Positions 63,270 to 64,000 of a stretch of DNA of 64,000 bases are shown piece by piece. Both the position numbers and the translations under genes were made by a program. Positions within the stretch are counted from its first letter, which is position 1. The number at the start of each line of letters is the position of its first letter. Under the pieces are notes generated by a model. It saw only the letters and a list, made by a program, of their open reading frames with translations. It did no database searches and was not told the DNA's origin. The stretch is taken from NCBI RefSeq assembly GCF_057098645.1, contig NZ_CM169472.1. One strand, 5' to 3'.

Positions 63270-64000
63270 TGAACCGCCCCGGTTTTCCTGGAGAGTGTTT
63301 TATCTGTGAACTCAGGCTGCCAGATCATCGTTTCTGATGGAAGCATAATAAGCTTTTTCTGCTTCTGCCGGAGGGATATGACCCAGCCTTCCCAGCAATC
63401 GTCGATTGTTATACCAGTCCACCCACGTGAGTGTGGCCAGTTCCACTTCTGCACGGTTTTTCCAGCTCTTACGGTGTATTACCTCCGCTTTGTAAAGACC
63501 ATTGATGCTCTCCGCCATCGCGTTGTCATACGAGTCACCTGTACTCCCTGTTGATGCCAGCAGTTTTGCTTCTTTTAGTCGCTCCGTATAGGCCAGTGAT
63601 ACATACTGAGAACCTTTATCACTGTGATGGACTGTGCCGGACGGCCGACGGGCCCACAACGCCTGCTCCAGTGCATCCAGCACGAATGTCGTTTCCATAG
63701 ACGATGAGACTCGCCACCCCACGATACATCCGGCAAACACATCAATGATGAACGCCACATAGACGAAGCCCTGCCATGTGCTGACGTAAGTAAAATCAGC
63801 CACCCACAGCTGGTCAGGACGTTCTGCCACGAACTGACGGTTTACGCGGTCGCCTGCGGAAACGGCTTTCCGGCTGACGGTAGTACGGACCTTTTTACCC
63901 CGGAGAACACCGGCAAGTCCCATAACCGCCATGAGACGTGCCACAGTGCATCTGGCCACTCTGATACCTTCCCGTAACAACTGACGCCAGACTTTACGCA
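63270..64000 (-). mobile_element. IS629-like insertion sequence (IS3 family), right end; truncated by window edge
   Basis: Terminal repeat tgaaccgccccgg at 63270 followed by an orfB-type transposase ORF. Confidence 0.85.
63312..64000 (-). CDS. IS3-family transposase OrfB (DDE integrase domain), partial
   Basis: [36 protein letters not shown] ... [10 protein letters not shown] ... [18 protein letters not shown]-terminus lies beyond the window. Confidence 0.9.

Follow-up and report, generated by a model that had tools for sequence, protein, structure and literature searches.

The prophage integrated at the tRNA-Arg gene argW in the window (the whole 64,000-nt stretch of DNA analysed here) carries a module of type III effector genes next to its integrase gene, and beyond that module an insertion sequence (IS) begins and runs off the window end. 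IS629-type elements have long been known to build up in the prophages of pathogenic E. coli, whose decay they drive. The locus raises the question of what this element is, what it interrupted and whether it explains why the effector genes lie beside the integrase end, as the original prediction had proposed. We put the probability at about 90% that the window holds the right end of an IS629/IS1203-group IS lying in a prophage tail-fibre gene, and that this element did not create the adjacency of integrase and effectors.

Identity of the element at the window end

By nucleotide identity, the last 731 bp of the window (63270..64000, minus strand) belong to an IS3-family element, 1310 bp long when complete and of the IS629/IS1203 group. 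What is visible is its right-hand part, from IS position 1310 down to 580; the element runs past the window end, and the window contains this single copy of it. The right terminal repeat TGAACCGCCCCGG was located at 63270-63282, with its TG start at 63270, and is the same repeat as that of full-length copies. Comparing both ends of the full-length copy on the O145:H28 plasmid pRM12581 extends the right terminal inverted repeat (IRR) to 63270..63295 (no strand assigned): complementarity to the left end of the pRM12581 copy is perfect over its first 13 nt and imperfect in the stretch that follows. The right repeat of the window copy differs from that of the other copies compared in having T rather than G at position 14 (GGT, not GGG).

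IS629 is a member of the IS3 family originally from Shigella sonnei. In BLAST searches of complete E. coli genomes the top matches of the visible portion were the O145:H28 plasmids pRM12581 and pRM13514, each identical at 731/731 positions; the pRM12581 match belongs to a full-length 1310-bp IS (L001:3001-4310), and chance is excluded by a match of this kind. Naming was judged by copies that depositors or RefSeq had named: on that basis the visible fragment is 98.9% identical to a copy that its depositors called ‘IS629 transposase’ (phage JLK-2012, O55:H7) and 95.5% identical to the common O157:H7 copies, which RefSeq labels ‘IS1203 family’ (‘IS3-like element IS1203 family’). In ISfinder practice, isoforms share a nucleotide identity of about 95% or more, and at 98.9% and 95.5% the element reaches this level for IS629 (including IS1203 and IS3411). 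IS629 sub-types differ by 4–5%, with IS1203 and IS3411 being isoforms (PMC3271280), and the 95.5% identity to the majority O157:H7 type falls inside that spread.

The transposase reading frame agrees with this assignment. A stop-free minus-strand frame of 228 codons enters at the window edge, terminates at 63312-63314 and corresponds to codons 69-296 of the 296-codon orfB plus the stop (63312..64000, minus strand; identified with Pfam, NCBIfam and the pRM12581 OrfB). The encoded fragment equals the last 228 residues of OrfB (296 aa) in the pRM12581 copy. It matches the Pfam families rve (E=6e-26), rve_3, rve_2 and HTH_21, and scores 254.9 bits against the NCBIfam model NF033516, ‘IS3 family transposase’, for which the cut-off is 160 bits. 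The fragment has the DDE (rve-type) catalytic domain that characterizes the IS3 family; the candidate DDE residues D136, D195 and E231 (full-length numbering) all lie within it, the second D and the E being 36 residues apart.

IS3-family elements make an OrfAB fusion transposase via -1 frameshifting, and they transpose by a copy-out-paste-in route through a circle, with a target duplication of 3–4 bp. The pRM12581 copy has 1310 bp, TG...CA ends, a 13-nt perfect terminal repeat with an imperfect extension, an intact OrfA (108 aa) and OrfB (296 aa), and a 3-bp target duplication, CAT; RefSeq joins its OrfA and OrfB by a programmed frameshift and annotates a pseudoknot. Its orfA occupies IS positions 55-381 and its frameshift pseudoknot region positions 336-452, and by these positions the orfA, frameshift region and left repeat of the window element would fall past base 64000. 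The IS part of the window gave no Rfam match; the frameshift pseudoknot would lie beyond the window end. A preprint (bioRxiv 10.1101/2023.06.07.543989) describes excision of IS629 as boosted by the IEE protein.

Matches to the element were found by BLAST in 4182 of 5426 complete E. coli genomes, at a median of four places per genome. Copies at least 99% identical made up only 205 of the 6809 matching records, so that the window copy, although its element is very common, is of a minority variant. Prophages hold 62% of IS629 sites (PMC3271280). The original prediction had named an IS3-family, IS629-like element with an OrfB transposase and had called such elements abundant in EHEC lineages; judged on sequence, the label ‘IS629-like’ is correct, and the genome counts show such elements to be abundant in E. 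coli.

The interrupted tail-fibre gene

The same prediction had the element merely bordering the effector module, 40 bp from a small ORF. Comparison with relatives places it instead inside a gene: it splits a lambdoid side tail-fibre gene of 437 codons, 170 bp from the 3′ end. The 3′ remnant of this gene (63100..63269, minus strand) comprises the last 55 codons, the stop and 2 nt of the split codon, and is severed from the first 381 codons. It is identical to the 3′ end of the gene for a 437-aa ‘prophage tail fiber N-terminal domain-containing protein’ of O55:H7 RM12579, and likewise to the corresponding sequence of L020 and L025, two argW prophages that have the same effector order and are each 98.5% identical to the window. 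The order in RM12579 is J - lom - tail-fibre gene (437 codons) - 89-aa gene - nleB2 - nleC - nleH1 - nleD, and the window follows RM12579 up to 63269, where IS sequence takes over.

The empty site in the IS-free relatives reads ...CTGTACCCG|GGAACC..., or in longer readings ...CTGTACCCG|GGAACCAGCC and ...CACCATCTGTACCCG|GGAACCAGCC...; it is identical in RM12579, L020 and L025, in which the gene is intact (437-440 aa). From this empty site the right-hand copy of a 3-bp target duplication, CCG, is predicted at 63267..63269 (no strand assigned). As for the 40-bp spacing, it holds only for a mechanical TTG-start ORF (62829-63230). The real gene begins at an ATG at 63098 (62829..63098, minus strand); its 89-aa product contains the phage tail-fibre C-terminal domain (Pfam PF06820, Phage_fiber_C, E=9.9e-35) and has the same sequence as its RM12579 counterpart. 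The 170 bp separating the gene from the IS are the tail-fibre remnant.

The precise junction of tail-fibre gene and IS is rare. No match to it was obtained among 5426 complete E. coli genomes by BLAST with 301-bp and 2401-bp junction-spanning queries, among GTDB species representatives by an exact-junction scan, or in IMG/VR. It is present in two draft contigs retrieved by contig look-ups with the window NleC, IntS and NleH proteins: L029 (GCA_029361185.1), which is 99.98% identical to the window over 16.6 kb, and L036 (GCA_053268055.1), which has nine similar places. Each of the two breaks off within the IS, as is usual for short-read assemblies at a repeat. Since the junction recurs in these drafts it is not an artefact of one sequence; the insertion is real and marks a small lineage. 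Comparison of the insertion site among related strains, which had been advised at the outset, thus finds it empty in RM12579, L020 and L025 and occupied in L029 and L036. The stf'|IS junction, CACCATCTGTACCCG|TGAACCGCCCCGG, could serve as a marker for the lineage.

L029 differs from the window at four positions in the 16.6 kb, three of them within 18 bp (62950, 62961 and 62967) in the 89-aa gene. The cluster at 62950-62967 suggests either that paralogous tail-fibre genes of prophages have undergone gene conversion or that short-read assembly introduced an error.

Four other pathogenic E. coli strains (2011C-4251, 2014C-3655, O157:H7 9.1_Anguil and O157:H7 DEC4E) have IS629-type insertions in paralogous tail-fibre genes of lambdoid prophages, beside effector modules. 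The kind of element and its orientation are the same, and the positions differ, being 8 bp, 67 bp and ∼840 bp away, with one inside the 89-aa gene. The DEC4E insertion, only 8 bp away, prompted the idea of a tail-fibre insertion hot spot, which is not claimable: about a dozen complete genomes have co-oriented IS629-type insertions near the tail-fibre gene end, versus ∼29,000 IS places, and the search joined co-oriented pieces only, so these counts support no claim on a hot spot or an orientation bias.

Just after the 89-aa gene, RNA folding found a GC-rich hairpin with A-run and U-run flanks (62790..62816, minus strand; -27.9 kcal/mol, z=-4.68) that a simple terminator scan did not have on its list. 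Situated between the 89-aa gene and nleB2, it resembles a bidirectional intrinsic terminator. It is likely an intrinsic terminator between the tail-fibre/IS transcripts and nleB2, a function proposed here from the fold. Should it terminate, the downstream effectors would be insulated from the IS; the insertion is probably without effect on effector expression.

The integrase end and its effector module

The integration target, the tRNA-Arg(CCU) gene argW, was identified by ARAGORN and Rfam at 56483..56557 on the plus strand. The 16-nt attachment core CTGCAGGGGACACCAT, as given for KplE1 (PMC2951348), has a single occurrence in the window, at 56543. Next comes the integrase gene intS (56719..57885, plus strand), assigned by annotation in relatives. 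The effector module (57982..62652) lies entirely on the minus strand and was delimited from ORFs, RefSeq annotation of near-identical loci and Pfam searches of matching contigs; it consists of nleD (57982-58680), nleH (58911-59792), nleC (60619-61638) and nleB2 (61672-62652).

With these features mapped, the proposal that the effector module owes its place beside the integrase end to the IS becomes hardly credible. There is a precedent for an IS-driven arrangement, in that the sbcB prophage of DEC4E reads integrase - IS - tail-fibre remnant - effector genes. In the window, by contrast, integrase and IS are on opposite sides of the effectors, ∼5.4 kb apart, with nleD, nleH, nleC, nleB2 and the small tail-fibre gene between them, and an element so placed is not the cause of the intS-effector adjacency. 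F2_81, UTME-3, CP148523.1 and JAWWMY010000001.1 moreover share the order argW-intS-nleD-(effectors)-tail fibre-lom-J, with the tail-fibre gene uninterrupted and the site free of an IS, and the identical argW-intS-nleD-...-tail fibre order without an IS at the site was seen in at least 10 contigs.

The window order also agrees with the published layout of the KplE1 module, in which intS adjoins attL/argW and is transcribed away from it, starting at a promoter of its own, with the TorI excisionase encoded at the other end (PMC2951348). As in this KplE1/CPS-53-type module, intS here comes after argW and its core CTGCAGGGGACACCAT, lies on the same strand and is oriented away from the tRNA gene. 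The attR and torI end is outside the window, but the KplE1-type torI end was seen in the complete relative F2_81, whose prophage begins with intS, continues with tail, head, lysis, Q, cI, N and exo/bet/gam, and closes with torI, the excisionase gene. Unlike the 10-kb KplE1 remnant of K-12, the module here belongs to a lambdoid prophage with type III effectors. The argW-intS-effectors-tail fibre-J order is the native layout of KplE1-type (IntS/TorI) prophages, a layout in which the cargo region beside the tail fibres naturally abuts the integrase; the adjacency of integrase and effectors is to be read in this way and not as a rearrangement.

The nleB2-nleC-nleH1-nleD module occurs twice per genome, with the same NleH, in CP148523.1 (L030/L031) and CP148301.1 (L033/L034), one module being in the argW prophage and the other in a prophage beside the bio operon. 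In CP148301.1 an IS629-type element with an AAG duplication (L033:12247-13556) lies inside intS of a related argW prophage, between nleD and yfdC, which would lock that prophage in place.

Sequence beyond the left end of the element

The insertion itself is best described by a simple scheme. An IS629/IS1203-group element with its transposase genes on the minus strand has inserted by transposition into a side tail-fibre gene, that of the lambdoid prophage with effectors at tRNA-Arg argW; in its full form such an element has 1310 bp and makes its DDE transposase from OrfA and OrfB through a programmed -1 frameshift. If it behaved as IS3-family elements do, the move would have been by copy-out-paste-in through a circular intermediate. 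The gene is broken 170 bp short of its stop codon, so that its final 55 codons, which encode the Phage_fiber_C part, are detached from the remainder, and the tail fibre would presumably be inactivated, adding to the decay of the prophage. This is an ordinary mobile-element insertion of an already known kind and of little consequence, adding one further case in a tail-fibre gene that looks dispensable.

What lies past base 64000 depends on whether the insertion remained simple. We consider it probable that a full-length element is flanked by a CCG duplication, with the 5′ tail-fibre part and then lom and J beyond. A simple insertion would place the element end at ∼64579 with ...CCAGGATTCCCGGGGCGGTTCA, then CCG, then GGAACCAGCCATTGCTGTTTG (tail-fibre gene, lom, J); the tail-fibre sequence after CCG is predicted as GGAACCAGCCATTGCTG..., and the ordering as ...GGGGCGGTTCA-CCG-GGAACCAGCC.... 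Full-length IS629-type copies in related loci had 3–4 bp duplications in six of eight cases, the AAG copy within intS in L033 being one of the six. Three of the four tail-fibre-region insertions examined were simple, with 3-bp duplications (L002 CAG, L004 CAC, L009 CTC).

Alternatively, the IS may be a rearrangement endpoint, where insertion was followed by an adjacent deletion or by recombination with another IS629 copy; in that case DNA other than the 5′ tail-fibre part would follow the left end, and much of the prophage may be gone. This is possible but unlikely. The two of eight copies without a duplication both coincide with missing prophage DNA. One, in F2_81 (L007:15119-16428), lies between cI and ninG, where replication and nin genes are missing. 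The other, in DEC4E (L008, the sbcB locus), is in the paralogous tail-fibre gene 8 bp from the window site; its flanks do not match (ATC versus GTC), its other side is integrase-proximal DNA at sbcB, and almost the whole sbcB prophage is gone. In O157:H7, moreover, only 21 of 47 IS629 sites had matching duplications (PMC3271280). Against these cases stand the three simple tail-fibre insertions, and the window itself has no sign of a deletion. By analogy with DEC4E, the IS could be the surviving endpoint of an IS629-mediated deletion of most of the argW prophage in this lineage, which we regard as doubtful; were it true, the integrase and four type III effector genes would be left as a fixed, unpackageable island, paralleling sbcB in DEC4E. 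It is improbable that the element is defective, a remnant with an internal deletion or a truncation on its unseen side and now an inert scar. Defective IS629 copies are known, such as a copy in O55:H7 CB9615 that has lost 86 bp internally (PMC3271280), and 2014C-3655 has an annotated 1309-bp frameshifted copy; yet the visible 731 bp show zero differences from the intact full-length copy, with 228 codons stop-free, and identity that high indicates a recent insertion.

For the simple insertion, a truncated tail-fibre product with a predicted IS-derived tail, ...WFPVNRPGNPGD, can be written in four allele backgrounds, none of which is on record. Similarity searches with a 60-aa and a 391-aa chimera returned no protein bearing the tail WFPVNRPGNPGD, and the candidate truncated tail-fibre proteins proved to be frameshifted variants, not IS fusions; these searches, like those for the junction in genome collections and contigs, were bounded by exact matching, clustering and candidate sampling, and their outcome is not evidence of absence.

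Two observations concern other parts of the window. Rfam naRNA4, a REP-derived nucleoid-associated RNA, occurs as two tandem copies on the minus strand (20750-20820 and 20841-20911, 83.3 bits each), unrelated to the IS. Between fadL and mlaA, the segment at ∼51900-53350 has ∼86% identity to most relatives, versus 96–99% in its flanks; the hypothetical gene there encodes 352-428 aa among strains and is a local hypervariable chromosomal gene.
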